64,000 nucleotides of DNA, taken from the sequence record DRR378314_2238. One strand, written 5' to 3'. Positions 2,300 to 29,971 of this stretch are shown here, piece by piece. The notes beneath the pieces are model-generated. The model was not told the origin of the DNA. It did not search any database and saw only the letters and a program-made list of their open reading frames with translations. The position numbers and the translations under genes were made by a program. Within the stretch, counting starts at the first letter, position 1. Each line of letters starts with the position of its first letter.

Positions 2300-2310
2300 G
2301 TTTTTGTCCT

Positions 2311-3465
2311 TCAACATAGGGTCTGGATCAGGCGAGTCAGAAAAGTCTGGCCTTGTTGCAGTTGTTTGGCAGAAATGAATTCATCCGGCCCGTGGGCCTG
2401 TTCGATGCTGCCCGGACCACAGATCACGGTAGAGTATCCGGTAGCCTGAAAATGCCCGGCTTCTGTCTGGTATGAGACGAACCGGTCATCGTTGTCACCT
2501 GTCAGGCCGCGCACCAGTTGCGCTGCTGTGCCTTGGGGTTCCGGGTTTAGTGCGGGTATGTTCTCGGGCACTTCGACAACGATATGGGCATCACCATGTT
2601 GCGCCTTCATTGCGCTTTGTGCGACTTGAACAATGTTCTGATAGCGCGCCACCCAATCCGCGCCGGTTTCGGGTGGGACAAAGCGTATGTCGCTTTCCAG
2701 AACGCAGGTCTCGGGGATCGTGTTCAGCGCGATACCGCCATGAATTGTGCCAACCTGGGCTGTTGAATAAGGCGGCGTGAAGCCATTCGGCGGCGTCCGC
2801 GAGGCATGCTTTGTAGTTTCATCCTTATGCCATTGGATCAATGTGGCAGCAGCTTCGATCGCCGAGACGCCAAGATCCGGGCGCGACGAATGTGCCGCCT
2901 TGCCGGTGATCGTCGTTGTCAAACCAAGGCCGCCTTTGTGGCCGGTGACCAAACCCATCATGCTGGGTTCGCCAACGATCACTGATGATGCGCGGGGCAG
3001 GTGATCTTGCAGTGCCTGCAGGATCGGCTGTGTGCCGAGACAGCCGATTTCTTCGTCAAAGGAAAAGGCAAACTGTATTGGGCGAACCAGCGGGGCAGCG
3101 GCCATCTGAGGAACGGCTGCTAATACAAGGGCCAGAAACCCCTTCATATCGCAGGTACCGCGTCCGTAGTAATTACCGCCTCTGCAGGTCAACGTCCATG
3201 GGTCAGAAGCCCAGTTCTGCCCTTCCACGGGTACGACATCCGTATGACCGGACAGCAATACGCCGCCGTCGACTTGTGGCCCTATATGCGCAATCAGCCC
3301 CAGCTTGTCGCCAAAGGCGTCGGGCAAAAGGTGGAAACTGACTTTTTGGCGTTTCAAAAGGGCAGAAATATACTCGATCAGATCGGTGTTAGAACGGTGT
3401 GAAACAGTGGGAAAGCGGACCAGCTGTTCCAGTATTTCAAGCTCTGCGCTCAGATCACGGATCAT
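2311..3465 (-). CDS. argE: M20 family acetylornithine deacetylase
   Basis: LSGHTDVVP, GRGTCDMKG, FDEEIGC, VGEP, QAHGPDE motifs. Confidence 0.85.
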   Translation of the reverse strand: MIRDLSAELEILEQLVRFPTVSHRSNTDLIEYISALLKRQKVSFHLLPDAFGDKLGLIAHIGPQVDGGVLLSGHTDVVPVEGQNWASDPWTLTCRGGNYYGRGTCDMKGFLALVLAAVPQMAAAPLVRPIQFAFSFDEEIGCLGTQPILQALQDHLPRASSVIVGEPSMMGLVTGHKGGLGLTTTITGKAAHSSRPDLGVSAIEAAATLIQWHKDETTKHASRTPPNGFTPPYSTAQVGTIHGGIALNTIPETCVLESDIRFVPPETGADWVARYQNIVQVAQSAMKAQHGDAHIVVEVPENIPALNPEPQGTAAQLVRGLTGDNDDRFVSYQTEAGHFQATGYSTVICGPGSIEQAHGPDEFISAKQLQQGQTFLTRLIQTLC

Positions 3466-4070
3466 TTCGCAACGGCCCGGAGGTCATTGTAGATCGTCGC
3501 ACGGCTGACGCCCAATAGTCTGGCGACATAGGCGGCGGCATTGCGCTCGGCCAATGCGTTTGAGGTCTCCAGCGCATTGACCAGTGCGCGCCGATCTTCG
3601 CGATCAAGCGAGTCCACACGCGTGTTGCGATGTGCGCACCAGTCGCTGACAAAGACATTCAGGCGCTCGTGCCAGTCATTGCGAAACAGTGAATCCGGCT
3701 GCGCGGAAGCGACCTGTGCCGGTTGCAGATTGCGCACCAATTGGCTGAGCTGTTGCAGGTCTGCCTGATCGTGATTGATGCACAGGACAAGTCTTGCAAT
3801 TCCTGCTTCGTCGCGGAGCACAACGCTGATCGATCTGAGTATGCTGCCGTCCCAATTCACCTTTTCATAGGGGCCGATTACGGTTTCACCGGGCCGAAAT
3901 TCGGTTTCATGCATATTCGACGGATCGCCCGGTTTGCGCTGCGAAAACGGGTTTTCGATCGAGGCAATGGAATCCGTGTCGAGGTCGTGGAGCACGACCT
4001 CGACACGGTTGCCAAATAGCATTGGAATCGCGCGGGTTAGTGCCTCTGCGTTTGCCCTTAGGTCCTGCAT
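3462..4070 (-). CDS. YheO/DauR-like PAS + HTH transcriptional regulator
   Basis: EVVLHDL, LRSIS, LCIN, C-terminal VARLLGVSRATIYNDL. Confidence 0.85.
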   Translation of the reverse strand: MQDLRANAEALTRAIPMLFGNRVEVVLHDLDTDSIASIENPFSQRKPGDPSNMHETEFRPGETVIGPYEKVNWDGSILRSISVVLRDEAGIARLVLCINHDQADLQQLSQLVRNLQPAQVASAQPDSLFRNDWHERLNVFVSDWCAHRNTRVDSLDREDRRALVNALETSNALAERNAAAYVARLLGVSRATIYNDLRAVAK

Positions 4071-4071
4071 C

Positions 4072-5211
4072 TTAGCGACCTGCTAGAATGTTACCTGTCA
4101 GGTCATTGAGCAGGGACAGTCCTTCACGCAAGTGGTCTTCGGGTAGGGCCGAACTGAACCGAAAGTGGTTTTCTACGCCGAAACGCGATCCGGGGATCAC
4201 CAAAATGTCTTTCTCTTTCAACAGCCGCATCGCCAGATTCTCGGATGATATGGGCAGGTCGAAACGGACAAAGGACATGGCCGATGCCTTTGGCGGTACG
4301 ACGTCGTAGACACCGGGGTGCCGGGCCAGTTCATCCGTCAGAACATCAAAACCTGTCCGGATTAATTGTCGCGCACGGGATTTTAGCTTGGACCGCGTTG
4401 GTTCTGCCAGAGCGATATCAGCCAATTCCATGGACAGCATCGATGCCGCTATCGACGCGTATTCGTGGCGTCGCCAGCTTTGGGTGATGACGTCTTCGGG
4501 CCCGACAAGCCAACCCAGTCGCAGGCCCGGTAGGCCGTAAGCCTTGGACATGGAGTTGACGATCAGAACCTTGTCATAACTGCCCCAGAAAGACGGTGTT
4601 TCTGCGTCGCCTTGACGCTCGGTTCCGGCATAGACCTCATCCGCCACGATCCAGGCACCCACGCGGTTTGCCGCGTCTATGATCGCAGCGCGGTCTTGGT
4701 CGGAAATGACCTGACCAGTCGGGTTGTTCGGGTTGACGACATGGATGATGCGGGTTTTGTCATCCACTGCATTGTTCAAGCCATCTTGGTCGATTGCCCA
4801 GCCATCGGCCTCGACCAGATCGACCCAGCGCACTTCGTTCCCATGGTTTTGGGCATTGCCCGAAATCTGTTCATAGGTGGGGCGGAAACAGATCACGTTG
4901 TCGCCGTGCTGCAAAAGCGTATTTGCGACCAGAGTATTGGCTTCGGTTGCGCCCACCGTAATCATAACACCGTCTGATGACGCGCCGGGATAGAAGCCGG
5001 CGATGGTATCGCGCAGCGATTGCTTTCCGTTGACTTGCGGGTAATCCAACATGGTTTGCATCAATTGCGACATGTCCAGATCGGCCAGATCGACAAGGCC
5101 CTGCAGCGACATCGGGTGTACGCCACTTTCTGAGAAATTGTAGACGACCCCGTGCTCAAGCTCTGAGAGGAATTGTTCGACTTGGAAGGGCGCGAAAGAT
5201 GCGAGTGTCAT
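4072..5211 (-). CDS. Class I/II PLP-dependent aminotransferase-fold enzyme (capreomycidine synthase VioD-like subfamily)
   Basis: NPNNPTG, DEVY, SMSKAYGLPGLRLGW; N-terminal FSESGVH; RBS AGGAG upstream of MTLASF. Confidence 0.85.
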   Translation of the reverse strand: MTLASFAPFQVEQFLSELEHGVVYNFSESGVHPMSLQGLVDLADLDMSQLMQTMLDYPQVNGKQSLRDTIAGFYPGASSDGVMITVGATEANTLVANTLLQHGDNVICFRPTYEQISGNAQNHGNEVRWVDLVEADGWAIDQDGLNNAVDDKTRIIHVVNPNNPTGQVISDQDRAAIIDAANRVGAWIVADEVYAGTERQGDAETPSFWGSYDKVLIVNSMSKAYGLPGLRLGWLVGPEDVITQSWRRHEYASIAASMLSMELADIALAEPTRSKLKSRARQLIRTGFDVLTDELARHPGVYDVVPPKASAMSFVRFDLPISSENLAMRLLKEKDILVIPGSRFGVENHFRFSSALPEDHLREGLSLLNDLTGNILAGR

Positions 5212-5366
5212 GAGGTGGCCGTCTCCTGATGTCAGCATGGGATTTGACGAAAACATCAAAATTAGATAGTTCAGTCTAATCGCGCGGTCAAGGCTCCGAT
5301 TGAGCGGGCAACAGTTAAACAGACATTAAGGGCTTTCACGGCCTGAAGGACCAAAGCAAGCTAACC

Positions 5367-6284
5367 ATGAATAACAGTCCGAAAGACCACACAAGATTTC
5401 AGGATGTTGACCTGAAACTGTTCCATGTTTTCGCCAAGGTCGTCGAAGCCGGGGGTCTGTCCAGCGCCCAATATGATCTGAACATGAGCCTTTCGGCGAT
5501 CAGTACCGCGATCTCGAATCTGGAAACGCGATTGGGTTTCCGCGTCTGCGAAAGAGGGCGCAGCGGCTTTCAGGTCACAGAAGGCGGTCATCTGGTTTAT
5601 TCTCAGCTCAGCCACCTCAATTCAGCGCTTAACCGATTTGAAAGCTCGTTGGATGCGTTCAAGGGGGATATGCGGGGTCAGTTCATCGTCGCCATGGATG
5701 ACGGAATTCTGACCAATCTGAGATGCCCGATTTACAAGGTGATCAGATCTTTCATCACCAGCTTCCCGGACATTGATCTTCATATGTCGATCATGACTGC
5801 ACCAAGAATGGAAAGGGCCTTGCTAAATGATGAGTTGAACGTGGCCATTGGTCCGTTCCTCGAAATCTCGAATGCGCTCGAGTCGGTGGTGGTTCACAGT
5901 GAAAAACAATTGTTATGTTGCGGCCGTGGGCACCCCGCATATGGGGTCGAGGACAAGGACGCGCTGGCAGAAGTCGTGCCGAGATCCGAATATTCCGCGC
6001 GAAAATACGACGATGCCAAGCACAACGCCCCGTCTGGCTCACCGTCCGAGACGACTACGGCGTCTACCGTCGAGGCCATGTTGGGTATGGTTTTAAGCGG
6101 AAAGTACCTTGGCTACTTGCCACGTCATGTTTGCGAGCGTTGGATCGAAAACGCGGAAATTTGGCCGTTAGATCCGAAAACCTATTCGTACAATACGGAT
6201 ATCAAGGTCGCATTTAGGCGGCAACGTAAGGATCGCCGTGCTGAGAAGTTTCTGGCGGCGCTAAACGAAGTACAAAAAATCTAA
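5367..6284 (+). CDS. LysR family regulator (BauR/GbuR-like), divergent from the aminotransferase operon
   Basis: DLKLFHVFAKVVEAGGLSSAQ...LETRLGFRVCERGRSGF HTH. Confidence 0.9.
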   Translation: MNNSPKDHTRFQDVDLKLFHVFAKVVEAGGLSSAQYDLNMSLSAISTAISNLETRLGFRVCERGRSGFQVTEGGHLVYSQLSHLNSALNRFESSLDAFKGDMRGQFIVAMDDGILTNLRCPIYKVIRSFITSFPDIDLHMSIMTAPRMERALLNDELNVAIGPFLEISNALESVVVHSEKQLLCCGRGHPAYGVEDKDALAEVVPRSEYSARKYDDAKHNAPSGSPSETTTASTVEAMLGMVLSGKYLGYLPRHVCERWIENAEIWPLDPKTYSYNTDIKVAFRRQRKDRRAEKFLAALNEVQKI

Positions 6285-6382
6285 GCAACGTCACTTCTGA
6301 CGGACAAGAGTACACTTTTGCATCTTGGGGTTCTTACATCGGCTTCCCCGGAACATATTGAGCAAAACCAAAGGACGACCTC

Positions 6383-7312
6383 ATGGGAAACTTGCCACCT
6401 GTGTGTGCGGCATCCGTGACACCGGTCGACGTGACCGGATCTGTAGACACCCCCAAACTAGCGGCACATTGCCGTTGGTTGCTGGATAACGGGTGCGATG
6501 GCATTGTTCTTTTTGGGACAACTGGTGAGGCGGCATCATTCGGAATCGGTGAAAGACAAGCCGTTCTGGAAGCGATGCTCGCGTCCGGTATCCAGGCGGA
6601 TCAGTTGGTGATTGGTACCGGTTGCTGCTCGGTCGAAGATACAGTGGTTCTTAGCCGACACGCTTTGCAGCAGGGATGCGCAGGGGTGTTGGTTCACCCG
6701 CCATATTTTTTTCGCCCGGCTTCCGACGCCGGTATTCTAGCATTCTTTGTCGGAGTGGTTGAGGCTTTGGGCAACGACGCCTGCGGCCTGATCCTTTATC
6801 ACTTCCCCGAAGCAACAGGCGCCCCAATAAGCCAGACACTTATCAGACAATTGACTGATCGTTATCCCGGTGTTTTTGTTGGGATAAAGGATAGCACTGG
6901 CTGCCTTGAGGATATGCTTGCAGTGGTCCAGCGGTTTCCTGAACTAAAGGTATTCACCGGAGATGATCACCTGCTTTGGCCGCTGCTTGAAGCCGGAGGA
7001 CATGGGGCTATAACTGCGACTGCGAATCTTGTGCCAAACTTGCTGGCGCAAGTCCGGGAGGACTGGCCATCGAAAAGCGAAGCGGTGTGTACTGCACACG
7101 AGAAACTCTCGCTTCTATGGGAGGACGTGTTGCTGAAATTTCCTGTGAGTGAAGCGGTGAAAGACGTAATCGCCTCAGTCTCCGGCGACGAAGGATGGCG
7201 GGCGTTGCGTCCTCCGCTTTTGCCGCTTTCGGCACCCCGTAACGCGCAGCTTGTTCAATTGACAGCACCGTTTGAAATTCAGTTTCCCGAAGGGCTTGGG
7301 AGAGAGGCATAG
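6383..7312 (+). CDS. Dihydrodipicolinate synthase/N-acetylneuraminate lyase family (class I aldolase)
   Basis: GTTGE, PPYF, LYHFP, GIKDS (Schiff-base Lys). Confidence 0.9.
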   Translation: MGNLPPVCAASVTPVDVTGSVDTPKLAAHCRWLLDNGCDGIVLFGTTGEAASFGIGERQAVLEAMLASGIQADQLVIGTGCCSVEDTVVLSRHALQQGCAGVLVHPPYFFRPASDAGILAFFVGVVEALGNDACGLILYHFPEATGAPISQTLIRQLTDRYPGVFVGIKDSTGCLEDMLAVVQRFPELKVFTGDDHLLWPLLEAGGHGAITATANLVPNLLAQVREDWPSKSEAVCTAHEKLSLLWEDVLLKFPVSEAVKDVIASVSGDEGWRALRPPLLPLSAPRNAQLVQLTAPFEIQFPEGLGREA

Positions 7313-7313
7313 C

Positions 7314-8339
7314 ATGATCGAACCGTCAGATTTTCCCACCCTTCAAGACATTATGAGCGCGCGCAAGCGGATTGATCCGATCGTCCGACGAACCCCGTTG
7401 ATATTCTCGGAGTATTTGTCGGAACGCGCCGGGTATGAGATTTGGCTCAAGCTTGAGAATTTGCAGAAAACAGGTAGTTTCAAGATACGCGGGGCCTCGA
7501 ACCGTATTCTGCAAATGACTGACGATGAGCGCGAACGCGGTATCATCGCCGTGTCCAGCGGCAACCACGGACGCGCCGTGGCCTATCTTGCGAAACGCTT
7601 GGGCATCTCGGCGAAGATTGTGGTTTGTGACCTTTGTCCTGAAAACAAGCGCGCCGCTATGCGATCTTACGGGGCAGAGGTCATCGTATACGGTGACACC
7701 CAGGATGACGCCCAGGCGCATGCCGATCAGCTAATCGCGAGCGAAGGCTATACTTGGGCGGACCCTTATGACGATCTGCGGGTGATTGCAGGGCAGGGCA
7801 CGATCGCACTGGAGGCTTTTGCCGATCTGCCGGATGCGGACACAATCATTGCCCCATTGTCGGGTGGGGGCCTATTGTCGGGCATCGCCTTGGCGTCCAA
7901 GGCAATATCGCCGAATGTGTCAGTTATTGGTTCGTCCATGGAGATCGAGCCGGGCATGGTGCGAAGCCTAGAAGCAGGTAAGCCCGTACATGTGGAAGAA
8001 CACCCAAGCCTGGCCAGCAGTATTACCGGCGCGATTGGACTTCGGAACCAGTGCACGTTTCCCATTATCCGAGATCTGATGGACCATGCTGTTCTTGTCT
8101 CCGAAGAAAGCCTCACCAGTGAGATGCGGCGTTTTGCAGACCATGAGGGCATGATTGTCGAAGGCGGTTCGATCACGTCCGTTCTGGCGGCGTTATCCCC
8201 TGGCGTCAAAGATCGAAATCCGAAGAGGGCAATCGTAGTGATGAGCGGGCGAAACATCGACCTCGGTACATTTTATCGTGTCACGCAAGGAAATGAGGGC
8301 GAAAGCCGAGCCACTTGGGAACCGTCCAACCATGCCTGA
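7314..8339 (+). CDS. PLP threonine/serine dehydratase family, EutB-like
   Basis: KLENLQKTGSFKIRGA, SSGNHG, PLSGGGL, SGRNID. Confidence 0.85.
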   Translation: MIEPSDFPTLQDIMSARKRIDPIVRRTPLIFSEYLSERAGYEIWLKLENLQKTGSFKIRGASNRILQMTDDERERGIIAVSSGNHGRAVAYLAKRLGISAKIVVCDLCPENKRAAMRSYGAEVIVYGDTQDDAQAHADQLIASEGYTWADPYDDLRVIAGQGTIALEAFADLPDADTIIAPLSGGGLLSGIALASKAISPNVSVIGSSMEIEPGMVRSLEAGKPVHVEEHPSLASSITGAIGLRNQCTFPIIRDLMDHAVLVSEESLTSEMRRFADHEGMIVEGGSITSVLAALSPGVKDRNPKRAIVVMSGRNIDLGTFYRVTQGNEGESRATWEPSNHA

Positions 8340-8392: not shown

Positions 8393-9298
8393 CTAAAACT
8401 TGGGCTTAAAGCTCTGCTCGATTATCGTTTCCAAAATGCGCTGAGCGCGGGACAGGCGGACCCCAACGGGGAAGGCCGCCTCAAATACTGCATCATAGGA
8501 AAACTGTTCCGGACAAATCTGCCTCATCCGACCGGCCTCGAGATATGATTTTGCACATTGGGCGGGCAAGTGACCTAGAGACTGCCCTGACAAGATGGCC
8601 GCTGCGATGCCATCCATATTACCGCTGTGGATGTTTTCCTGCGCGGGTTTCAGGCCACCTGGCCGTAATGAACCCCCGTAATAGGATCGCGATGCGTAGT
8701 CATAGGATTCAATGTCAGCAGGATCAGCTTGGGGGGCATCGAACAGGGGATGACCGACACCGCAATACAATGCCTGCTGTTCTTTGAACAACGAAACATA
8801 CCTTAGCCCGGGCGCATGGTTGGGGAAGGTGTGAATGCCCATATGAAGCTTTTGCTCTAATATCCGGCGCTCAATCTCTAGCGGCTCCATAACGCGCAGA
8901 TGCAGTTTGACCTGAGGCATTGCGTCTCGCAGGTCAGACAGGATGCGATCCATCGGGAAATCTTCGTTTCCTAAGAGAGCATCAGCAGTGGCAATCTGCA
9001 GCTGGCCTGTAATCTCACCACGCACGCTGTTGGCCCGTGCGACAAATGTCTGGCAATCCCGCAACAGCTCGGTCGCTATCTGATAGATTTCATGCCCTTC
9101 TTCGGTCAGCGCGAAACCAGCGCGTCCACGACGGCACAGACGCATGCCCAATCGTGTTTCCAGATCGTTCATCTGTGTGCTGATTGTCGACTGGCTGACG
9201 TTCAGGGCAATTTGTGCGCGAGAAAACCCTCCGGCTTCAGCTACGGCAACAAAGACACGCAAAAGATGAAGGTCCGGGGTGGAAATCGACGTGAGCAT
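8393..9298 (-). CDS. LysR family regulator (BauR/GbuR-like)
   Basis: DLHLLRVFVAVAEAGGFSRAQ...LETRLGMRLCRRGRAGF. Confidence 0.9.
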   Translation of the reverse strand: MLTSISTPDLHLLRVFVAVAEAGGFSRAQIALNVSQSTISTQMNDLETRLGMRLCRRGRAGFALTEEGHEIYQIATELLRDCQTFVARANSVRGEITGQLQIATADALLGNEDFPMDRILSDLRDAMPQVKLHLRVMEPLEIERRILEQKLHMGIHTFPNHAPGLRYVSLFKEQQALYCGVGHPLFDAPQADPADIESYDYASRSYYGGSLRPGGLKPAQENIHSGNMDGIAAAILSGQSLGHLPAQCAKSYLEAGRMRQICPEQFSYDAVFEAAFPVGVRLSRAQRILETIIEQSFKPKF

Positions 9299-9302
9299 TC
9301 AG

Positions 9303-9326
9303 TTCCTACGATCTTTATAGATGTAA
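9303..9326. promoter_or_regulatory. Candidate LysR operator (degenerate copy of the 12907 palindrome)
   Basis: TTCCTACGA-N6-TAGATGTAA in the divergent LysR/ureohydrolase spacer. Confidence 0.4.
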
Positions 9327-9402
9327 TCATTGTTTATCATGTGTTGTCTGGCGGTAATCAAGCGTGATTTCTGTCTTTCAAAGACAACATAGGGTTATTC
9401 TC

Positions 9403-10353
9403 GTGACAAAATTCGTTCCACCTTCATCGCCCGACATGTTCGCCCCGCGTTACAGCGGGTTGGCTACGTTCATGCGTGCCCCGGTTGCACAGTCGCTGGC
9501 GGACGTGGACATTGGCATTTTGGGTATCCCCTATGATGGGGCCCTGACCAACCGCCCCGGCGCGCGCCATGGCCCGCGCGAAGTGCGCAACCAATCAAGC
9601 CTGATGCGTGCCATCAACCACGCAACGCGCATCAACCCGTATGAGCTGTGCCGTGTCGCGGATGTTGGCGATGTGCCCTTTCAATCCGCATTCGACATTG
9701 AAGCAAGCCACAAGGACATCGCAGAGTTTGCAGCAACCTTAGTCGCGGCGGATGTCATGCCGTTATCCTGCGGAGGGGATCACTCGGTAACTCTGCCGCT
9801 GCTGCGCGCAGTTGCCGCAGAACCGGTGGCTTTGATCCACATCGACGCGCACACCGACACATGGGACAGTTTCCAGGGATCCAAGTTCAACCATGGCGCA
9901 CCTTTCAGACGCGCGCATGAAGAAAATCTGATCGACCCCAGCAAGACGGTTCAGATTGGTATACGCGGGGCGCAAAGTGTTTCCGAAGGCTGGGACTATT
10001 CCGAACAAGCCGGAATGCGCGTCATGTTCATCGAAGAGGTTCAGCAACGCGGTATTGCCGCTATCGTCGAAGAGACACGAAAAATCGTCGGAGATAGCCC
10101 TGTTTACCTGAGTTTTGACATCGATAGCATCGACCCGGCCTTTGCTCCGGGAACTGGTACGCCTGAAGTGGCAGGCCTTACGACCGCCGAAGCGATTGCA
10201 CTGATCCGAGGGTTCCGTGAACTGAACTATGTTGGGGCCGATGTTGTCGAAATTTCTCCTCCGTTTGATGTGGGTGGTGTTACGGCGCTGGCTGGTGCCA
10301 CGGTGATGTATGAGCTGCTTTGCGTATTGGCTGAAGAGCGCGGCAAAAGGTAA
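9403..10353 (+). CDS. Ureohydrolase (agmatinase/guanidino-acid hydrolase family)
   Basis: GGDHSVT, DAHTD, SFDIDSIDP, GTGTPE, VEISPPFD; GTG start uncertain. Confidence 0.9.
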   Translation: MTKFVPPSSPDMFAPRYSGLATFMRAPVAQSLADVDIGILGIPYDGALTNRPGARHGPREVRNQSSLMRAINHATRINPYELCRVADVGDVPFQSAFDIEASHKDIAEFAATLVAADVMPLSCGGDHSVTLPLLRAVAAEPVALIHIDAHTDTWDSFQGSKFNHGAPFRRAHEENLIDPSKTVQIGIRGAQSVSEGWDYSEQAGMRVMFIEEVQQRGIAAIVEETRKIVGDSPVYLSFDIDSIDPAFAPGTGTPEVAGLTTAEAIALIRGFRELNYVGADVVEISPPFDVGGVTALAGATVMYELLCVLAEERGKR

Positions 10354-10360
10354 CCACGTG

Positions 10361-11428
10361 ATGACCCAAACCACGATAGCTGTGGCCGATCAGGGCGGAT
10401 TGAGTGGCGCGTATGTTCCAGTATCCACCGACGACGCCAATGGTTTTCTGCTAGATCACTATGGTTTCCGCGGTGCGTTGCGCAGGTTCGAAACCGAAAA
10501 GGACGATACGTTCAAAGTAACCTGTGAGGATGGGCGCAAGTACGTTCTGAAAATCGCCAACCCCAGCGAGCCGCTGGAAGAGATTGATTTTCAAACCTGC
10601 CTGATGCGCCATGCTGCACAACGTGATCCTGCCCTTCGCATTCCCAAGACAATTGAAACAACTGACGGGCGGGATTTTGTTCCTGTCACCGATAAAGGCG
10701 GGCACGAACGGGTGGCCCGCGTTCTGAGCTATCTGGAAGGTGTTCCTTTGGATTCGACGGAATCCAACCCCCGCGAACGAGTTAAAATTGGTAGGGTTCT
10801 GGGCCGAATGCGTTTGGCAACCGAAGGGTTCAGCCATCCTGGTGCCGCAAGACAATATGCATGGGATGTGCAACACTTGCTGACCCTGGAGCATCTGCTT
10901 GGGCATGTCGAGGATACCACTCAGCGCGCAGCGCTTGAGCAAGGGATTGATCGCTTCCGCAACATCGAGCCAGTTTTGCGACCGTGTCGGCAACAGGTGC
11001 TGCACAATGATTTCAGCAAATCCAATATTGTGGTTGATCATAACCAGGACGAATTTGTCATGGGTATCATCGACTTCGGGGACTCGGTCAAAACAGCGAT
11101 CGCCGTGGATGTGGCGACGGCGCTGCTTAATCAATTGCCGCAGGGGCCGTATGACGACCTGCTTTATCGCGGCAGGGATGTTCTGAGCGGTTATCTGCAG
11201 GTGACTGAGTTGACCGATGATGAACTTGCATTGATCCCGCATCTTGTCATGGCTCGCGTTGTCACGCGTGCCTTGCTGACCCTGTGGCGGGCCAAGATGT
11301 TCCCCGAAAACACGCGCTATATCATGCGCAACACCTATCAAGGCTGGCATCAGCTGGACTGGTTTCTGGCGCGCAGCCCGGATCAGGTTTCCGGTCTCTT
11401 GATGTCTTTTTCCGGTCAGAAAGGATGA
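10361..11428 (+). CDS. Aminoglycoside-phosphotransferase-fold kinase (hydroxylysine kinase-like)
   Basis: YVLKIAN, LSYLEG, AWD, LHND, GIIDFGD. Confidence 0.85.
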   Translation: MTQTTIAVADQGGLSGAYVPVSTDDANGFLLDHYGFRGALRRFETEKDDTFKVTCEDGRKYVLKIANPSEPLEEIDFQTCLMRHAAQRDPALRIPKTIETTDGRDFVPVTDKGGHERVARVLSYLEGVPLDSTESNPRERVKIGRVLGRMRLATEGFSHPGAARQYAWDVQHLLTLEHLLGHVEDTTQRAALEQGIDRFRNIEPVLRPCRQQVLHNDFSKSNIVVDHNQDEFVMGIIDFGDSVKTAIAVDVATALLNQLPQGPYDDLLYRGRDVLSGYLQVTELTDDELALIPHLVMARVVTRALLTLWRAKMFPENTRYIMRNTYQGWHQLDWFLARSPDQVSGLLMSFSGQKG

Positions 11429-11433
11429 TCGCA

Positions 11434-12783
11434 ATGACTACCGCTCAAAAATCTTCCAAACGCGGGAAGATGGTAAACGGGTTCGATCCGGCCAATGCCG
11501 ACAATCTTGACACCCGCACGCGCGCGTTCGTCGAGCGCAGGAGCCGCTTGTTAGGTCCGGCCTATAGATTGTTCTATTCAGACCCGGTCGAGTTCAGCCG
11601 AGCCAATGGCGTCTTTATGTACGATTCAGAAGGGAACGAATATCTGGACGCGTATAACAATGTGGTTTCAGTGGGCCACTGCCACCCGCATGTGAATGCC
11701 GCGATTGCCCGGCAGATGGATGTCATGTGTACCCACACCCGTTACATGCAGGATGGTATACTGGACTTTGCCGAGATGTTGCTGGACACGTTCGAGCCCG
11801 AGATCGAACATGTCATGTTCACGTGTACCGGGTCCGAGGCAAACGATCTGGCCCTGCGCATGGCAAAGCACCACACTGGCAATCAGGGCATCATCGTTAC
11901 CTCAGAAGCTTATCACGGAAACTCAGAACTGACGGCCGGGTTTTCGCCATCTATGGGTGAGAACTCTCCCTTGGGCACATGGGTCCGCCGCGTCCCCGCA
12001 CCTGATACTTACCGCGTTGACACAGCGGATATGGGCGAATGGCTGGCAGCGCGGGTTCAAGAGCAAATAGACGACCTGCACAGACGGGGTCAGGGATTAG
12101 CGGCTTTTGTTGCGGATACGCTTTTTACCTCGGATGGTATTTTTCCCCAAAATGCAAACATGCTGAAGCCGGTCATCGACGTCGTACACAACGCCGGTGG
12201 TGTCTTTGTAGCAGATGAAGTGCAATGTGGATTTGCCCGAACCGGCACGCATATGTGGGGATATCAGCGCCATGGTGTGGTGCCGGATATCGTGTCGTTG
12301 GGAAAACCCATGGGGAACGGTTACCCGGTTGCGGGTATCGCCATTCGGCCTGAAGTTGCTGCGCGTTTCGGACATGACATGCGCTATTTCAATACGTTTG
12401 GTGGTAACACCGTGGCTATGGCAGCCGCAAAAGCGACGTTGGAGGTTATCCAGAATGAGGGTCTCCAAGCCAATTGCGACCGGGTGGGTAGTGTCATGCT
12501 GGAAGGGTTGCGTGATATAGCAGCCCGTCATTCGGGCATCGGTGATGTGCGCGGCACCGGGTTGTACATGGGCGTGGAAATGGTGAAAGACCCCGAGACC
12601 AAAGTTCCCGACAGCCCCAGAGCCCTGGCACTTGTCAACAAGATGCGTGAGCAGCGTATTCTGATTTCCGCCACTGCGTTCAATGCCAATGTCTTGAAAA
12701 TACGACCACATCTGACATTTTCGGAAGACAACGCCACCAGATTTCTGACTGGGTTCGAGGATGCCTTAAAGGCAGTTTCCTAG
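11434..12783 (+). CDS. Class III PLP enzyme, AGXT2L-type amino-alcohol-phosphate phospho-lyase-like
   Basis: YLDAYNNV..VGHCHP, THTRY, GSEANDLALR, ADEVQCGF, GKPMGNG, YFNTFGG, VLKIRP; adjacent to kinase. Confidence 0.85.
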   Translation: MTTAQKSSKRGKMVNGFDPANADNLDTRTRAFVERRSRLLGPAYRLFYSDPVEFSRANGVFMYDSEGNEYLDAYNNVVSVGHCHPHVNAAIARQMDVMCTHTRYMQDGILDFAEMLLDTFEPEIEHVMFTCTGSEANDLALRMAKHHTGNQGIIVTSEAYHGNSELTAGFSPSMGENSPLGTWVRRVPAPDTYRVDTADMGEWLAARVQEQIDDLHRRGQGLAAFVADTLFTSDGIFPQNANMLKPVIDVVHNAGGVFVADEVQCGFARTGTHMWGYQRHGVVPDIVSLGKPMGNGYPVAGIAIRPEVAARFGHDMRYFNTFGGNTVAMAAAKATLEVIQNEGLQANCDRVGSVMLEGLRDIAARHSGIGDVRGTGLYMGVEMVKDPETKVPDSPRALALVNKMREQRILISATAFNANVLKIRPHLTFSEDNATRFLTGFEDALKAVS

Positions 12784-12906
12784 GGTCGAACCCACTGATC
12801 ACAAAGCAAGCGATCCGGCGAAATGCCGGACCTTTGATTGAGCGGTTGCGCAGGGGAACCTTGAGCAACTGCTTAACATGGCGAGCATCTACAATACATC
12901 TGCTGG

Positions 12907-12930
12907 TTACTTCTAAAGAAATAGATGTAA
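12907..12930. promoter_or_regulatory. Palindromic candidate operator upstream of NitT/TauT-type ABC operon
   Basis: TTACTTCTA-N6-TAGATGTAA (8/9 inverted match). Confidence 0.55.
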
Positions 12931-13030
12931 AGTAAACAATTCCCATATTTTTCCCTACTATTTGACCGTGTCTCATATCGGAACGAAGTGGCCGTCAGAG
13001 CCATCCCTTTTCCAACAAGGAGACCAAGAC

Positions 13031-14059
13031 ATGCTAGACCACTCGATTTCCAAGGCAGCCAGAAGGGCCCTGTTGGCCCCGGCTGTTATTGCGATCGCTG
13101 CGAACATGACCCCTGGCGCGGCCCAGGCAGAGGACAGCATAAGCTGTATTTTCCCATTCTGGTTCGGCTTTGCACCCGTATTCGTGGCACAGGAAGAGGG
13201 TTATTTTGAAAGCGAAGGCCTAACCGTAAGCACAGCCTTTGACAATGATCGCGCCAACGTGTTGCCGGCGATGGCGAATGGCTCGATCGAGTGCACGATG
13301 CGGACCATCGGTGAAAGCATGTCGCGCCCACGCCAGCCTGATACAACCGGAACTGTGATCGGCACCATCGATATCTCGGTCGGGGCTGATGGCGTTGTGG
13401 CGTCACAGGAAATCCAGTCGGTCGAAGATCTGATCGGCAAGACCATGGCCGGTGAGATCAACCATCCCGGGACGACCTTGATCCAGCATGCGTTGTCAGA
13501 GAAGGGCAAAAGCATAAAAGACGTCAACATTCAGCTGATTGCCACCGACGACTCGGCTGCGGTTTTTGAAGATCCTAACGTCTCGGCCGTGGCAACCTGG
13601 GAACCGATGATGGGGTCCATCGTCAAAAATACGTCGCGCGAAGGGGCGCACTTGCTTTTGACCTCGGCGGATTATGAGGGTCTGATCACTGATGTGATCA
13701 TTGTTCGCACCGAAGACCTGCAGGAGAACCCCGAGAAATACGCGAAATTCCTGCGCGGGATCTATCGTGCCATTGATCTCTACAACGCTGATCCGGACAA
13801 GTTTATCGCGATCTCGGCCCCCGCTTTCGATGTTCCGGCCGCGGAAATGAAAGAGGCGCTGGCTGGAGTGAAATACACCTCCTTTGAGGAAAGCGTTGAT
13901 TATCTGCCGTCTTCAGCCGGTGATGGTAAGTTAAAAGAGGTCTTTGACTCTTTCAACGACATCAACGTGGTGCTGGATCTTCAAAACGCACCGCTTGACT
14001 ACCAACCCTTTGTCGATGGCTCGGTTCTGGACGGGCTGTTCGATGGGCAAACGCGATAA
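13031..14059 (+). CDS. ABC transporter substrate-binding protein (NitT/TauT family)
   Basis: Signal peptide ending AQA; W.GFAP, DIS.GADG, TWEP; RBS AAGGAG. Confidence 0.85.
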   Translation: MLDHSISKAARRALLAPAVIAIAANMTPGAAQAEDSISCIFPFWFGFAPVFVAQEEGYFESEGLTVSTAFDNDRANVLPAMANGSIECTMRTIGESMSRPRQPDTTGTVIGTIDISVGADGVVASQEIQSVEDLIGKTMAGEINHPGTTLIQHALSEKGKSIKDVNIQLIATDDSAAVFEDPNVSAVATWEPMMGSIVKNTSREGAHLLLTSADYEGLITDVIIVRTEDLQENPEKYAKFLRGIYRAIDLYNADPDKFIAISAPAFDVPAAEMKEALAGVKYTSFEESVDYLPSSAGDGKLKEVFDSFNDINVVLDLQNAPLDYQPFVDGSVLDGLFDGQTR

Positions 14060-14072
14060 CGCTCCGGCGACG

Positions 14073-14095
14073 CCCCGGCGCGGATTGCGCCGGGG
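14073..14095 (+). other. Intercistronic hairpin after SBP gene
   Basis: CCCCGGCGC-GGATT-GCGCCGGGG. Confidence 0.55.
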
Positions 14096-14134
14096 TCACC
14101 ACCACTCTGATTTCTTTTCCCGAAAGGCCTAAGC

Positions 14135-14923
14135 GTGTTCAAGTCTCTGTTCGCTTTTCGCAAACCCCTAAGTCGCCGAACGGACCTGGCCTTGGGAATA
14201 ATCGGCTTTGCCCTGTTCCTGTGCGCCTGGGAGGTTACGGCACGATCCGGTGCGATCCGTCCTGAGTTCCTGCCGTCACCCGTCGCCGTCGTTCAGGCCT
14301 TCATCGGCTTGTTTGTCGAGCGCGACTTTTCGTCTGACATCGTGATCAGTGTCGGACGTGTTTGGTTTGCTTTCTTACTGTCGATGATCGTGGCAATCCC
14401 ACTGGGTCTTTTGATGAGTACCTACAGGTTTGTAGGTGCGATCCTTGAGCCCTTTGTCGATTTCGTCCGGTATCTTCCTGTGCCAGCGCTTGTCCCACTG
14501 CTGGTAATCTGGTTCGGCGTGGGCGAAACATCCAAGATTGCAGTGTTGTGGATGGGTACGTTCTTTCAACTGATCCTGATGATTTCTGATGACACCAAGC
14601 GCGTTCCGGTTGAATTCATTGAATCCGGTCAAACCCTTGGTGGAAGCAACGGGCAGATCATGCGGCACGTCATAATTCCCGCAGCCTTGCCCAACATGGT
14701 CGACAGTCTTCGCATTACGATGGGGTGGTGCTGGACATATCTGATCGTTGCGGAAATCGTGGCAGCGAATTCCGGGATCGGCCACGTAATCTGGTCATTG
14801 CGGCGCTTTGTTAAAACACCCGAAGTGATGGCTGGTATCATTACGATCGGGATCATAGGCCTCTTGACGGATCAGGCTTTCCGTTATGCCCACGCCCGTC
14901 TGTTCTCATATCTGCGCAGGTAA
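14135..14923 (+). CDS. ABC transporter permease (NitT/TauT)
   Basis: FLPSP, RYLPVPALVPL, EAA-like IESGQTLGG, AEIVAANSGIG. Confidence 0.9.
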   Translation: MFKSLFAFRKPLSRRTDLALGIIGFALFLCAWEVTARSGAIRPEFLPSPVAVVQAFIGLFVERDFSSDIVISVGRVWFAFLLSMIVAIPLGLLMSTYRFVGAILEPFVDFVRYLPVPALVPLLVIWFGVGETSKIAVLWMGTFFQLILMISDDTKRVPVEFIESGQTLGGSNGQIMRHVIIPAALPNMVDSLRITMGWCWTYLIVAEIVAANSGIGHVIWSLRRFVKTPEVMAGIITIGIIGLLTDQAFRYAHARLFSYLRR

Positions 14924-14926
14924 CCC

Positions 14927-15727
14927 ATGGATAACTTCATCGAAATAAAGGATGTCGCCAAGACCTACTGGTCTGACGATGGGACGTCGGAAACCAAAGT
15001 TGTTCTGCCATTGTCTATGACGATTGCAGAAGGCGAAATGGTGATGTTTTTGGGGCCGTCAGGTTGTGGCAAAACAACTTTGATGCGTATCGTCGGTGGG
15101 CTTGAGACACCGGATCAGGGAACCATTCATCTACATGGTGATCGGCTTGCCGGGCCAGACCGGAGACGTGGAATGGTGTTTCAGTCATACTCGTCTTATC
15201 CGTGGCTTTCCGTGCGCGACAACATCAAGTTCGGCACCCGCTATCGCAAGGATATCACCGCGCAGGAAAAGGAAGAGGTGACGGACCATTATTTGAATAT
15301 GGTCGGGCTGGCGCAGTATGCCGGTTTCTACACCAATCGCATATCAGGTGGAATGAGACAGCGTGTTGCGATTGCGCGAACGCTGGCCTCTTCTCCGGAT
15401 GTTCTGTTGATGGATGAACCGTTTGGTGCGTTGGATGCCCAAACGCGAGAGTACCTGCAATTCCAGCTTATGGACATCAACAAGGCAGAGAAGAAAACTA
15501 CGATCTTCGTGACCCACGACGTGGAAGAGGCGATCCTGCTGGCCAATCGCATCGTTATCTTTTCGTCCCGACCAGCACGCGTGGTCCGTGAAATACACGT
15601 GGACGAGATCCTGCCGATGGAAAGCCGACGCAACGGCACTGCCGATATGGACCGGTTTTTCAAACTGCGCGCCGAGATACTGGAAATCATTCGCGCCGAA
15701 TACGCGCATACGCTTGAAGGGGTGTAA
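14927..15727 (+). CDS. ABC transporter ATP-binding protein (NitT/TauT)
   Basis: GPSGCGKT, ISGGMRQR, LLMDEPFGALD. Confidence 0.95.
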   Translation: MDNFIEIKDVAKTYWSDDGTSETKVVLPLSMTIAEGEMVMFLGPSGCGKTTLMRIVGGLETPDQGTIHLHGDRLAGPDRRRGMVFQSYSSYPWLSVRDNIKFGTRYRKDITAQEKEEVTDHYLNMVGLAQYAGFYTNRISGGMRQRVAIARTLASSPDVLLMDEPFGALDAQTREYLQFQLMDINKAEKKTTIFVTHDVEEAILLANRIVIFSSRPARVVREIHVDEILPMESRRNGTADMDRFFKLRAEILEIIRAEYAHTLEGV

Positions 15728-15728
15728 G

Positions 15729-16502
15729 ATGGCAGCTGAACTGTCCGGTAAGCATGTGGTCGTTACCGGTGCCAATCGGGGGATTGGTCTGGGGTTGGCG
15801 CAAGGGTTTCTTGACGCAGAGGCCGACGTTACGATTGTGGCGCTAGAGGATGATGTGGGGGAGGTGGCCGAAAAGCTGTCCGGCGATTATGGGCGGCAGG
15901 TCGGGCATGTAAAATGCGATATCTCGGATCTTGGGCAGGTTATGGCGTTGTGTGCGTCAGTGGATCGGGTTGATGTGCTGATCAACAACGCAGGGTTCGA
16001 ATACATCACCCCGATCACCGACCCGGCAGATCATGTAGATGAGGTCTTTCGCCAGATTATCGAGACCAATGTGATTGGCACGTTTTCGGTGACGCGGCAT
16101 TTGCTTGACAAGATCCCGGATGGTGGTCGGATCGTGAACACGGCGTCCATGTGGGGGAAAACAGCGGTTGCAGAATTCAGCGCATACTGCGCCTCCAAAC
16201 ACGCGGTGATCGGGTTGACGCGCTCCCTGGCGCAAGAACTTGCGCCGCGTGGCATTTCGGTAAATGCTGTCTGTCCCGGCTGGGTGCGCACTGTGGCGTC
16301 GATGCGTTCACTGTCCTTCATGGCTGCGCGGCAAAACCGAACCGAGGCTGATCTGCTGGATGAAATTGTTTCGGCTCAGGCGTTGGGCGGCTTGATGGAG
16401 CCTGCGGATATGGTTGCCATGTATGTCTTTCTGGCCGGGCCTGCCGCATCAAACATAACCGGGCAATCTTTTACGGTTGATCGAGGAGAGTTGATGCAAT
16501 GA
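15729..16502 (+). CDS. SDR family oxidoreductase
   Basis: TGANRGIG, NNAG, YCASK, VNAVCPG. Confidence 0.9.
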   Translation: MAAELSGKHVVVTGANRGIGLGLAQGFLDAEADVTIVALEDDVGEVAEKLSGDYGRQVGHVKCDISDLGQVMALCASVDRVDVLINNAGFEYITPITDPADHVDEVFRQIIETNVIGTFSVTRHLLDKIPDGGRIVNTASMWGKTAVAEFSAYCASKHAVIGLTRSLAQELAPRGISVNAVCPGWVRTVASMRSLSFMAARQNRTEADLLDEIVSAQALGGLMEPADMVAMYVFLAGPAASNITGQSFTVDRGELMQ

Positions 16503-17230
16503 CCAACGAGCTTGAGGGCAAAGTCGCCTTGGTCACCGGGGCGGCGCAAGGCATCGGCGCGGCAGTCGTCCGCGCGCTGGCCGGGGCAGGCGCGACCGTG
16601 ATCGCCACTGATATCCGCGATTTGAACCAAACCTGCTTAGGGGTTGCGCGGACACGGGGTGTGACATGCGATGTGTCTGATCCGGCAAGTGTCGACCGGC
16701 TGTTTCACTCGATCGACGAAACCGAGGGCCGTCTGGATCTGGCTGTCAATGCGGCTGGTATCCTGTCCGAGGGACGGCTGGTGGATATGGATATTTCGGA
16801 ATTTGACCGGATTATTTCGATCAATTTGCGGGGGTCTTTCCTGATCGCTCAAGGGGCCGCAAGAATGATGGCGGGGCCTGGTTCGGGTCGGATTATCCTT
16901 ATTGCCTCGGAACTCGCATATCTGGGCCGTGCCGATTTTTCGGCCTACTGCGCGTCCAAGGCGGGCGTCGTCGGGCTGACCCGATCTCTGGCGCGCGAAT
17001 TGGCCCCAAATATCACCGTCAATTCAGTTGCTCCCGGGCCGGTTGATACACCGATGCTTGGGGTCGAAAACATGTCTCAGGACTGGATTGAAAAGGAATT
17101 CGATGTGCCGTTGGGGCGGATCGGCCGCCCCGAAGAAATCGGCGGTCTGGTGCGTTTCCTATGCGGACCAGATGCAGGGTTTTTTACAGGACAGACGCTC
17201 AGCCCGAATGGCGGCGCCGTTATGATTTAA
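16499..17230 (+). CDS. SDR family oxidoreductase
   Basis: TGAAQGIG, VNAAG, YCASK, VNSVAPGP. Confidence 0.9.
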   Translation: MTNELEGKVALVTGAAQGIGAAVVRALAGAGATVIATDIRDLNQTCLGVARTRGVTCDVSDPASVDRLFHSIDETEGRLDLAVNAAGILSEGRLVDMDISEFDRIISINLRGSFLIAQGAARMMAGPGSGRIILIASELAYLGRADFSAYCASKAGVVGLTRSLARELAPNITVNSVAPGPVDTPMLGVENMSQDWIEKEFDVPLGRIGRPEEIGGLVRFLCGPDAGFFTGQTLSPNGGAVMI

Positions 17231-17242
17231 GGAGAAACACCC

Positions 17243-18157
17243 ATGCAACTTGCAAGACCCGTTCCATGGCCCAACGGGGCCAAGGTCGCCTGCGCAATTA
17301 CACTGGATATGGACGCGGACAGCTTGGTTCATATTCATCACGGAAGCAACGCGCAGAACAAATTGTCGGCTACGTCAATGCTGCGCTATGGGCCCGAGGT
17401 CGCGGTGCCCCGCATACTTGAAACTTTTCGGAACTTCGATCTGAAGCAGAGCTTCTTTATCCCGGCCTGGTGCATCGAAAACCACGCCAAAACAGTCGAG
17501 GCTATCGTCGAGGACGGCCACGAAATTGGCTATCATGGCTATATTCACGAAGCGCCGAACAGTTTGTCCGAGGCACTAGAATACGATTGGATGTGCCGCT
17601 CAATCGAGATCATTGAAAAGCACACAGGCAAACGCCCGCGTGGCAATCGTTCGCCGCTTTATCATATGTCTGCTAAAACGCCCGACTTCCTGGCGAAAGA
17701 GGGGTTTTTATATGATACGTCGCTGATGGGTGACGACGTACCCTATATTCTGGAAACGGGTCAGGGGGATTTGCTGGAGTTGCCAGTTAGCTGGGCAACG
17801 GATGACTGGCCGCCCTACGTTCATGCTCCTGATCTGAACTATATGTTCGCACCTCAAGCGCCAGACCGGGCTATGGAAATATTCATGGCTGAATTTGAAG
17901 CACTCCGGCACTCCCCCGGAGGGTTGTGGATTTCCGTCTGGCACCCCTTTGTCAGTGGGCGATTGTCACGCTGGCAAAGGGTCGAAAGGATGATGGAGTA
18001 CATGGTTGGAACCGGCGATGTCTGGTTCGCTACACTTGAGGAAATCGCCTTGCACATTCAGGGCCTTGAGGCTGACAAACGATACACACCGCGCCGGGAT
18101 CGGCTGCCATACTCCAAGGGCGTTCAGGTGCCAGAGGAATTACTGGGCAAGAGCTAG
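17243..18157 (+). CDS. Polysaccharide deacetylase (CE4) family, PuuE-like hydrolase
   Basis: WPNGA, DMDAD, HEIGYHGYIHE, DDVPY, DDWPP, WHP. Confidence 0.85.
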   Translation: MQLARPVPWPNGAKVACAITLDMDADSLVHIHHGSNAQNKLSATSMLRYGPEVAVPRILETFRNFDLKQSFFIPAWCIENHAKTVEAIVEDGHEIGYHGYIHEAPNSLSEALEYDWMCRSIEIIEKHTGKRPRGNRSPLYHMSAKTPDFLAKEGFLYDTSLMGDDVPYILETGQGDLLELPVSWATDDWPPYVHAPDLNYMFAPQAPDRAMEIFMAEFEALRHSPGGLWISVWHPFVSGRLSRWQRVERMMEYMVGTGDVWFATLEEIALHIQGLEADKRYTPRRDRLPYSKGVQVPEELLGKS

Positions 18158-23660: not shown

Positions 23661-23678
23661 GTTTCTTTCCTTAGATTG

Positions 23679-23712
23679 AAAAAGCGCGGCACCAGATTAA
23701 CTGGTGCCGCGT
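23679..23712 (-). terminator. Intrinsic terminator inside the minus-strand unit
   Basis: CGCGGCACCAG-N5-CTGGTGCCGCG followed by T-run on minus strand. Confidence 0.7.
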
Positions 23713-23730
23713 CAGTTCAGGAAGGTTGAC

Positions 23731-24309: not shown

Positions 24310-24333
24310 ATCAATCTCCAATATCGGCGAGAG

Positions 24334-24795: not shown

Positions 24796-24871
24796 TGGTT
24801 TCCTCCTGAAAACTTTGGCAAAGCTAAGCCGAAGGGGCCGCGCCTTGTCACACGATGAATCATCAGCCCGA

Positions 24872-24888
24872 AGTTGAGAGAAATTCAT
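24872..24888 (-). promoter_or_regulatory. Candidate LysR box for the SnoaL/VOC/SDR unit
   Basis: Minus strand ATGAA-TTTCTC-TCAACT (TGA-N7-TCA). Confidence 0.5.
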
Positions 24889-24955
24889 CTACGCATGTCA
24901 TTGTTTTCACGCGTCGCCTTTGTGAGGCCGTCGATATCCTTCAGTGCAATTAAAC

Positions 24956-24983
24956 TTCAGCATGACCTGAGATTTCCTCATTT
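24956..24983 (+). promoter_or_regulatory. LysR-type operator (island motif)
   Basis: TTCAGC-ATGAC-CTGAG-ATTTCC-TCATTT. Confidence 0.65.
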
Positions 24984-25043
24984 TTCTGAAGGCGCAGTTG
25001 ATGTGAGCATGCAGGGGCAACACTTGATGCAGAGGTATTGATC

Positions 25044-25727: not shown

Positions 25728-25737
25728 GGAGTAGATC

Positions 25738-27294: not shown

Positions 27295-27305
27295 AAGGAC
27301 ATCAC

Positions 27306-29945: not shown

Positions 29946-29971
29946 ACGTAAAGTAGAACTGGAGAATACCA

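Follow-up and report, generated by a model that had tools for sequence, protein, structure and literature searches.

The window analysed here is a 64,000-nt stretch of sequence record DRR378314_2238, in which a gene for a LysR-type regulator (8393-9298, minus strand) diverges from three plus-strand genes encoding an arginase-family ureohydrolase, an APH-fold kinase and a class III pyridoxal-5′-phosphate (PLP) enzyme. The original prediction described a three-gene unit divergent from a LysR gene. The genes and their divergence are as it described them, but further co-oriented genes travel along with the trio, which is part of a conserved ten-gene unit spanning 8393-18157. This is a real, conserved and undescribed catabolic unit, made up of enzyme families that are all already known. 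The prediction knew of no characterised pathway with this trio, and neither the trio nor the kinase-less form of the unit found in relatives is described in the open full-text literature (subscription journals lie mostly outside that coverage). The nearest genome, G001, has an identical gene set at 97-100% identity, and the G+C content of the cluster (0.547) is close to that of the window (0.543).

The open reading frames of the trio extend over 9364-10353 (ureohydrolase), 10310-11428 (kinase) and 11284-12783 (PLP enzyme) and match PF00491 (E = 1.9e-89), PF01636 (E = 3.4e-25) and PF00202 (E = 5.5e-74) respectively. Upstream purine-rich sites and comparison with relatives place the likely true starts at a GTG at 9403 for the ureohydrolase (9403-10353, 316 amino acids), at 10361 for the kinase (10361-11428, 355 amino acids) and at 11425 for the PLP enzyme (11425-12783, 452 amino acids). 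The kinase and PLP genes overlap at an ATGA junction. Downstream, in the same orientation, lie an ATP-binding cassette (ABC) importer (13031-15727), two classical short-chain dehydrogenase/reductases, SDR1 (15729-16502) and SDR2 (16499-17230), and a hydrolase of the CE4, or polysaccharide-deacetylase, fold (17243-18157). The importer comprises an SsuA/THI5-type periplasmic binding protein (13031-14059; PF09084), a TauC-like permease (14135-14923) and an ATPase (14927-15727), the last two assigned from family-model matches.

The regulator carries the Pfam domains HTH_1 and LysR_substrate and is present in 16 of the 17 loci of the clade defined below. In the spacer that separates its gene from the ureohydrolase gene, a dyad at 9307-9325, judged on visual comparison to be conserved between the window and 10 related spacers, is a likely LysR operator. 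A promoter/terminator scan gave a result at chance level, and the window contains no Rfam match, the guanidine riboswitch included.

Linkage of the ureohydrolase to the kinase and PLP genes

A kinase-anchored scan of GTDB genomes returned 53 loci. Seventeen of these, from 16 genomes (L050 and L051 are two contigs of the same record title), belong to a clade with kinases 56-81% identical to that of the window, and the ureohydrolase gene lies directly upstream in all 16 genomes. No ureohydrolase was found in the remaining 36 loci within the DNA examined. When four pairs found via the binding protein, rather than via the kinase, are included, the ureohydrolase accompanies 19 of 19 kinase-lyase pairs in the clade and 0 of 59 outside it. 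The linkage is beyond chance, and in this clade it is not the rare association that the original prediction had named as evidence against itself. In trees of 78 adjacent kinase-PLP pairs, rooted on L055 and leaving out duplicates, L059 and truncated pairs, all 19 pairs linked to a ureohydrolase fall into a single, uninterrupted clade (support 0.999 for the PLP enzyme, 0.757 for the kinase and 1.0 for the two joined). The tree defines the clade; kinase identity was rejected as a criterion, as L183 reaches 55% and lacks the ureohydrolase.

Of 401 evenly sampled genomes from the family, 18 have a kinase match at E <= 1e-45. The four matches at 60-98% identity all have the trio (they are G001 and three genomes from the GTDB scan, and hence not independent); for the 14 at 33-45%, the 8-18 kb examined contain no ureohydrolase. 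Among 401 genomes of the phylum there are seven kinase matches besides G001, with no ureohydrolase in 17-20 kb. On a plasmid of Pseudomonas MPC6, 6.5 kb separate a sister ureohydrolase gene from a kinase gene and a class III gene; this was rejected as a second origin of the trio, since the pair is only 25% identical and lacks the window-type phospho-lyase motifs.

The rest of the unit is kept as well. Of the 17 clade loci, 15 have the permease, ATPase, SDR1 and CE4 genes and 14 have the binding protein; the gaps are contig ends, save for a degenerate SDR2 in L004. The unit is preserved in several gene orders, through inversions, across several families of the alphaproteobacteria, whose record titles name Ruegeria, Paracoccaceae, Stappiaceae, Inquilinaceae and Tepidamorphus; the closest named kinase, from Ruegeria halocynthiae, is 81% identical. 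Two sets of neighbours were rejected as core members. An ornithine-cyclodeaminase (OCD)-like gene at 18275-19219 has no counterpart beside the unit in any of the 17 clade loci, and of the upstream DapA-, EutB- and GntC-like genes, the DapA-family aldolase recurs in one clade locus and the GntC-like gene in two.

Some carriers show signs of decay: a second ureohydrolase is truncated in L003 (L003:7065-7511), SDR2 is degenerate in L004 (near 13800) and the ureohydrolase is split over two frames in L005 (L005:7002-8134), with sequencing error possible in all three. Sister kinase-phospho-lyase pairs, often two per locus, occur without the ureohydrolase in rhizobial loci L019-L053, among genes for HAD hydrolases, aldehyde dehydrogenase, OCD-like, EutB-like, DAO and cupin proteins. 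At L060:2320-12266 and at L185, hydantoinase/oxoprolinase A and B genes stand beside a related pair.

Signatures of the unit's enzymes

Among solved structures, the ureohydrolase matches the 3-guanidinopropionase GpuA best (351 bits), ahead of the guanidinobutyrase GbuA (277), proclavaminate amidinohydrolase (237) and agmatinase (218); E values are 5.8e-104 for PDB 3NIP, 1.6e-81 for 3NIO and 2.8e-69 for 1GQ6. The binuclear metal motifs and the catalytic His and Glu are intact, and an arginine equivalent to GbuA R72 is retained. According to PMC9772407, this arginine sits against the acid group of the substrate, and a human homologue that shares this capping residue does not accept agmatine, arginine or guanidinoethanol. 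By similarity, motifs and tree position, the window enzyme groups with the guanidino-acid hydrolases and is related to GpuA. Of the substrates listed in the original prediction, 4-guanidino-3-hydroxybutyrate alone is a good fit, whereas 4-hydroxyarginine, 5-hydroxyhomoarginine, hydroxyagmatine and guanidinoethanol appear less likely as direct substrates, given this grouping and the capping arginine.

Pseudomonas aeruginosa GpuA (PDB 3NIP) shares the metal ligands and capping arginine, and its gene presumably also has a divergent LysR layout. Its substrate loops, however, are changed at five positions in the window enzyme (Phe at the Tyr157 position and four further changes), which in addition is linked to a ring hydrolase, SDRs, a kinase and a lyase. 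Two loop residues that are Phe and Thr in GpuA are Gln and Asn in the window subclade, and these swaps suggest an extra polar group on the substrate. A second, highly conserved ureohydrolase family (L011:6807-7781 and relatives) is present in five of the 17 clade loci. Its best solved match is 1WOG (183 bits), it is without the capping arginine, and Ser replaces the late catalytic-site Glu.

Class III contains few lyases, and phospho-lyases are among them (PMC8154272). The PLP enzyme has as its best solved matches human ETNPPL (6TOR; E = 3.2e-104, 353 bits) and a bacterial phospholyase (5G4I; E = 6.6e-96, 325 bits); the next class III enzyme follows at E = 2.4e-51 (178 bits), a gap of 45 orders of magnitude. 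The PLP-binding Lys and Asp are present, and Lys occupies the position of an Arg in dialkylglycine decarboxylase. Numbered from 11428, window residues Y76, R105, K424 and R426 align with Y61, R90, K412 and R414 of 5G4I, which we take to be phosphate ligands; this site thus has the expected Tyr, Arg, Lys and basic residues. With the PLP lysine K293, they are kept in 73-74 of 74 aligned homologues (five duplicate loci dropped); the original prediction had proposed checking such residues against ETNPPL/PHYKPL. These features support a predicted phospho-lyase of the ETNPPL/A1RDF1 type, and agree with the earlier reading of the AGXT2L-type enzyme.

The kinase, a predicted small-molecule amino-alcohol O-kinase, has APH catalytic motifs that are conserved in 21 of 21 clade sequences, with the phospho-lyase gene adjacent, and it corresponds to the N-terminal part of the NF004799/NF004800 fusions. 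Its matches to solved structures are weak (E about 1e-7) and include 6EF6, presumably a mycobacterial aminopropanol kinase. Homologues carry the automatic name hydroxylysine kinase; we do not treat automatic names as evidence. Hydroxylysine kinase and the 5-phosphohydroxylysine and phosphoethanolamine phospho-lyases were reportedly described by Veiga-da-Cunha in 2012. Like HYKK with PHYKPL, like ETNPPL and like 5G4I, the window pair joins an APH kinase with a PLP enzyme from the same class III subfamily. Unlike those systems it forms its own clade and would receive its substrate from a ureohydrolase, as part of a larger catabolic unit, and on present evidence its substrate would not be hydroxylysine.

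It could be argued that the pair is a passenger acting on an unrelated amino alcohol, or that the PLP enzyme is a plain transaminase, since in most lineages the core functions with no such pair (L093 is one example) and similar pairs occur in many unrelated contexts. Yet the pair immediately follows the ureohydrolase in each of the 16 kinase-anchored genomes, the reading frames overlapping or abutting; it stays with the ureohydrolase where the rest of the unit is inverted, and its phospho-lyase-type residues are intact. We consider this explanation improbable.

The binding-protein model (pLDDT 94) resembles TauA, Thi5, SsuA and ThiY in fold at 15-20% identity. Searches of solved structures with SDR1 and SDR2, both of which have intact S-Y-K catalytic residues, gave only generic FabG/hydroxybutyrate dehydrogenase matches. 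The glycine-rich loop of SDR1 contains an Arg in all 22 clade sequences, and SDR2 mostly has an Asp after the second strand; these differing cofactor-loop signatures are compatible with one oxidation and one reduction. The idea that the SDRs serve purely as a hydroxyl epimerase is weakened, because both are also kept beside GpuA-type enzymes. The CE4 protein, a predicted ring-opening amide hydrolase, matches 3RXZ (E = 6.5e-61), 3QBU (2.4e-29) and PuuE 3CL6 (4.5e-19), and scores 79.5 bits against a cut-off of 424.6 for the allantoinase PuuE model TIGR03212.

The kinase-less core in relatives

A core of importer, two SDRs, CE4 hydrolase or creatininase, and ureohydrolase is much more widespread than the branch that carries the kinase. 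Binding-protein matches occur in 14 of 401 family genomes and seven of 401 class genomes. Of 19 such loci examined (all but G001), four have kinase and lyase, with binding proteins 80-85% identical. The other 15 have neither; within the DNA examined, 14 have an SDR, 10 a CE4 hydrolase or creatininase and nine a ureohydrolase. Among the best 80 of 266 metagenome loci, many of them on short contigs, kinase and lyase are present in seven of the 12 with a binding protein at least 73% identical and in none of the 68 below that value.

The composition of the core varies. The CE4 slot is often taken by a creatininase-family enzyme, as in Skermanella (291 bits to a solved creatininase), Rhizobium CIAT894, Salipiger and several other genome and metagenome loci (TIGR04448 above its cut-off), and some loci have both CE4 and creatininase. 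An Amidohydro_2 enzyme adjoins the core in four loci. Transport genes differ as well: Gemmobacter has an annotated cytosine permease in place of the ABC system, Shinella has an APC permease, and in the Rhizobium CIAT894 core an amino-acid ABC system is accompanied by an aldolase and a class V PLP enzyme. In the kinase-less cores L144, L147, L150, L151 and L155 the GpuA substrate loops are unchanged, and the L144 ureohydrolase scores 539 bits against GpuA, compared with 351 for the window enzyme.

Oxygenase genes lie in or beside several kinase-less cores, either for Rieske large subunits (L071, L080, L081, L096) or for NtaA/DmoA-type flavin monooxygenases (L095, L097, L100, L168), which suggests an oxidative entry step in those variants. 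Unlike the guanidine-riboswitch regulon, the window has no riboswitch; guanidine-I and guanidine-II riboswitches (L056:2940-3062 and L080:6326-6372) were matched only at guanidine-carboxylase operons that they head and that adjoin the kinase-less core.

Proposed pathway, alternatives and neighbouring clusters

In outline, the enzymes probably convert a guanidino compound into urea and a vicinal amino alcohol, and the latter into an aldehyde, ammonia and phosphate. The original prediction placed the ureohydrolase first, unmasking the amine for phosphorylation and elimination. We retain that logic as an inference, but the ring hydrolase, the SDRs and the importer in the unit imply that the ureohydrolase performs a middle step. 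The unit is likely to break down a small hydroxylated cyclic guanidine for nitrogen. A cyclic acylguanidine is suggested because creatininase, which opens such rings, swaps with the CE4 hydrolase, and the unchanged GpuA loops in cores of the L144 type imply 3-guanidinopropionate, and hence a six-membered ring of the dihydroisocytosine type, in those variants. The kinase and lyase would need a hydroxyl next to the amine carbon, and a three-carbon route through isoserine is the simplest joint reading.

From gene content, linkage, family membership and conserved residues we infer the reactions, their order and the substrate as follows. The ABC system would import the ring compound, and the two SDRs would adjust its redox state to give a cyclic acylguanidine of the 5-hydroxy-dihydroisocytosine type. 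The CE4 hydrolase would open this hydroxylated six-membered ring to 3-guanidino-2-hydroxypropionate, from which the GpuA-like enzyme would release urea and isoserine. The kinase would then form O-phosphoisoserine, and the PLP enzyme would eliminate phosphate and ammonia from it, yielding malonate semialdehyde. This product may pass to a (methyl)malonate-semialdehyde dehydrogenase (MMSDH) encoded elsewhere in the genome, and MMSDH is indeed found above its cut-off in five of five genomes tested. We regard this three-carbon route as the best of the readings considered here, but only a tentative one. Its guanidino acid, absent from the earlier list of candidates, appears to fit better than the four-carbon homologue 4-guanidino-3-hydroxybutyrate.

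Several observations weigh against the isoserine route. Solved creatininases are known to act on five-membered rings, and we know of no natural 5-hydroxy six-membered cyclic guanidine that could feed it. MMSDH is also present in the kinase-less genome G082 and is hence non-discriminating, and no aldehyde dehydrogenase travels with the unit in the 17 clade loci. The fold search with the binding-protein model gave no clue to the ligand, and the ESM Atlas only generic names. Because the 19 linked pairs form one clade, they count as a single joining event, kept by descent and transfer, and not as 19. The Gln/Asn loop swaps are common to the kinase-less sister clusters L067, L068, L093, L096-L098 and L101, and L093 has the full cassette (binding protein 78% and ureohydrolase 72% identical) with no kinase in 14.4 kb. 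No close stand-alone kinase occurs anywhere in the 15 kinase-less core genomes; three of them have matches at 27-31% only, in long fused frames. Either these organisms dispose of the product otherwise, or the loop swap does not mark a hydroxyl. Finally, the Aspergillus niger guanidinobutyrase has Tyr at the GpuA Y157 site and prefers a four-carbon substrate 30-fold (PMC10833137), so that chain length is not set by this residue.

A four-carbon route is accordingly compatible with an aromatic residue at the Y157 site. In this route an N-amidino-hydroxypyrrolidone-like ring would be opened to 4-guanidino-3-hydroxybutyrate and the ureohydrolase would release urea and 4-amino-3-hydroxybutyrate, to be converted to succinic semialdehyde, ammonia and phosphate. 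The acid-capping arginine, the ring hydrolase and the SDRs, which might oxidise a cyclic hemiaminal of a guanidino aldehyde, would all suit this route, and hydantoinase/oxoprolinase-type lactamases adjoin related kinase-lyase pairs. 4-Guanidino-3-hydroxybutyrate is said to occur in marine invertebrates, which we could not confirm in the literature. The window enzyme is nevertheless clearly nearer to GpuA than to GbuA, and near-orthologues of GpuA occur in related cores. The four-carbon route seems rather unlikely.

An amino-acid or amine substrate, namely 4-hydroxyarginine, 5-hydroxyhomoarginine, hydroxyagmatine or an N-acyl derivative from which the CE4 enzyme removes the acyl group, would instead give hydroxyornithine, hydroxylysine or hydroxyputrescine for a hydroxylysine-kinase-like pair. 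Proclavaminate amidinohydrolase, the third-best match of the ureohydrolase, takes an N2-substituted hydroxyarginine, CE4 enzymes are often deacetylases, and the automatic kinase names agree. The ureohydrolase also exceeds two agmatinase cut-offs (NF002564, 317.7 against 302; TIGR01230, 213.5 against 174.3), a further point against the isoserine route. These models also label GpuA-like plasmid genes speB, however, and neither the bit scores nor the acid-capping arginine place the window enzyme with agmatinase SpeB. Guanidino-acid hydrolases that have the capping arginine do not accept agmatine or arginine (PMC9772407), the importer is of the SsuA/THI5 type and not an amino-acid or polyamine system, and a linear N-acyl substrate would leave the creatininase swap unexplained. 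We find such a substrate distinctly unlikely.

In a two-carbon route, guanidinoacetaldehyde or rings of the 2-aminoimidazole type would be reduced to guanidinoethanol, which would lead via ethanolamine and phosphoethanolamine to acetaldehyde, while an oxidative branch through glycocyamidine, creatininase and the second ureohydrolase would lead to glycine. Phosphoethanolamine phospho-lyase is indeed the best solved match of the PLP enzyme, and creatininase acts on glycocyamidine. The second ureohydrolase family, besides its presence in clade loci, is the sole one in the Shinella and Gemmobacter cores, and a DapA-family aldolase and a GntC-like enzyme are encoded upstream in the window. These two genes, however, adjoin the unit in only one and two of the 17 clade loci, and guanidinoethanol is no substrate of the human homologue that carries the capping arginine (PMC9772407); we judge this route very improbable. 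Oxidised-guanine products such as guanidinohydantoin would account for both CE4 and creatininase, and were rejected for this branch because they yield no amino alcohol.

The isoserine route invites comparison with known pathways. Creatinine breakdown by CrnA (PDB 1J2T) and creatinase resembles the proposal for the window's relatives, in which a creatininase-family enzyme would act on a cyclic guanidine before urea is released. The window differs in having CE4 in the creatininase slot, an arginase-fold enzyme in place of creatinase, two SDRs, a kinase and a lyase; neither creatininase nor creatinase is encoded within 8393-18157, and creatininase occurs in relatives only. Reductive pyrimidine catabolism, by dihydropyrimidine dehydrogenase, dihydropyrimidinase and beta-ureidopropionase, likewise comprises a redox step, ring opening and release of a three-carbon beta-amino acid. 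It has no enzyme family in common with the proposed route and yields CO2 and ammonia from a ureide, rather than urea from a guanidine. An aminoacetone/1-amino-2-propanol route in RMM microcompartments was reportedly described by Mallette and Kimber in 2018. A pair of apparently this type, in L190, is 25% identical to the window kinase and PLP enzyme. The RMM route also combines an SDR, an APH kinase and a class III PLP enzyme (PMC4207490); the window unit has no shell genes and the RMM route no guanidino step. The unit would thus end like the hydroxylysine and aminopropanol kinase/phospho-lyase routes, resemble the creatinine route in its middle and follow reductive pyrimidine catabolism in outline, and it belongs to none of them.

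A broader possibility, which we consider doubtful, is that the core, made up of the SDR pair, GpuA and a ring hydrolase of the CE4 or creatininase family, represents an undescribed analogue of reductive pyrimidine catabolism that acts on rings of the 2-aminopyrimidine/isocytosine type, and is the missing natural source of the GpuA substrate. The branch studied here would take the 5-hydroxy ring, and its kinase and phospho-lyase would be the first to act on isoserine and O-phosphoisoserine. The environments of these bacteria would then be expected to contain a hydroxylated cyclic guanidine that is abundant but unrecognised. The two extra enzymes of the branch demand a primary amine beside a hydroxyl-bearing carbon, and so narrow the substrate more than the kinase-less copies do. 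If the proposed pathway holds, it would give functions to genes that now bear the names agmatinase, polysaccharide deacetylase and aspartate aminotransferase; it would also reveal a new specificity among amino-alcohol kinase/phospho-lyase pairs and point to an overlooked nitrogen-rich metabolite.

Other genes and clusters lie elsewhere in the window. At 1349-8339, a PLP enzyme scoring 247 bits (cut-off 415) with the model of GntC, the hydroxyarginine cyclodehydratase of the guanitoxin pathway, is surrounded by genes for a YheO-like regulator, ArgE, an OCD-like protein, a LysR regulator, a DapA-family protein and an EutB-like protein; GntC-like and YheO genes flank the cluster in L011 as well. 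A Hint_2-domain protein (20153-21286) is unrelated to the ten-gene unit. A second guanidino cluster at 49894-58785 encodes two more ureohydrolases, 45% and 34% identical to the one studied here, with a ProVWX-type importer, an M20 hydrolase, an amidinotransferase/deiminase-fold protein and a divergent LysR regulator. At 22884-30619, paralogues of SDR1 (46%) and of the CE4 hydrolase (47%) accompany VOC, SnoaL-like and DUF1989 proteins, a TRZ/ATZ amidohydrolase, an amidase and a flavin reductase. An Alisedimentitalea plasmid has these genes annotated as a group, and they appear to form a second uncharacterised ring-opening cluster.

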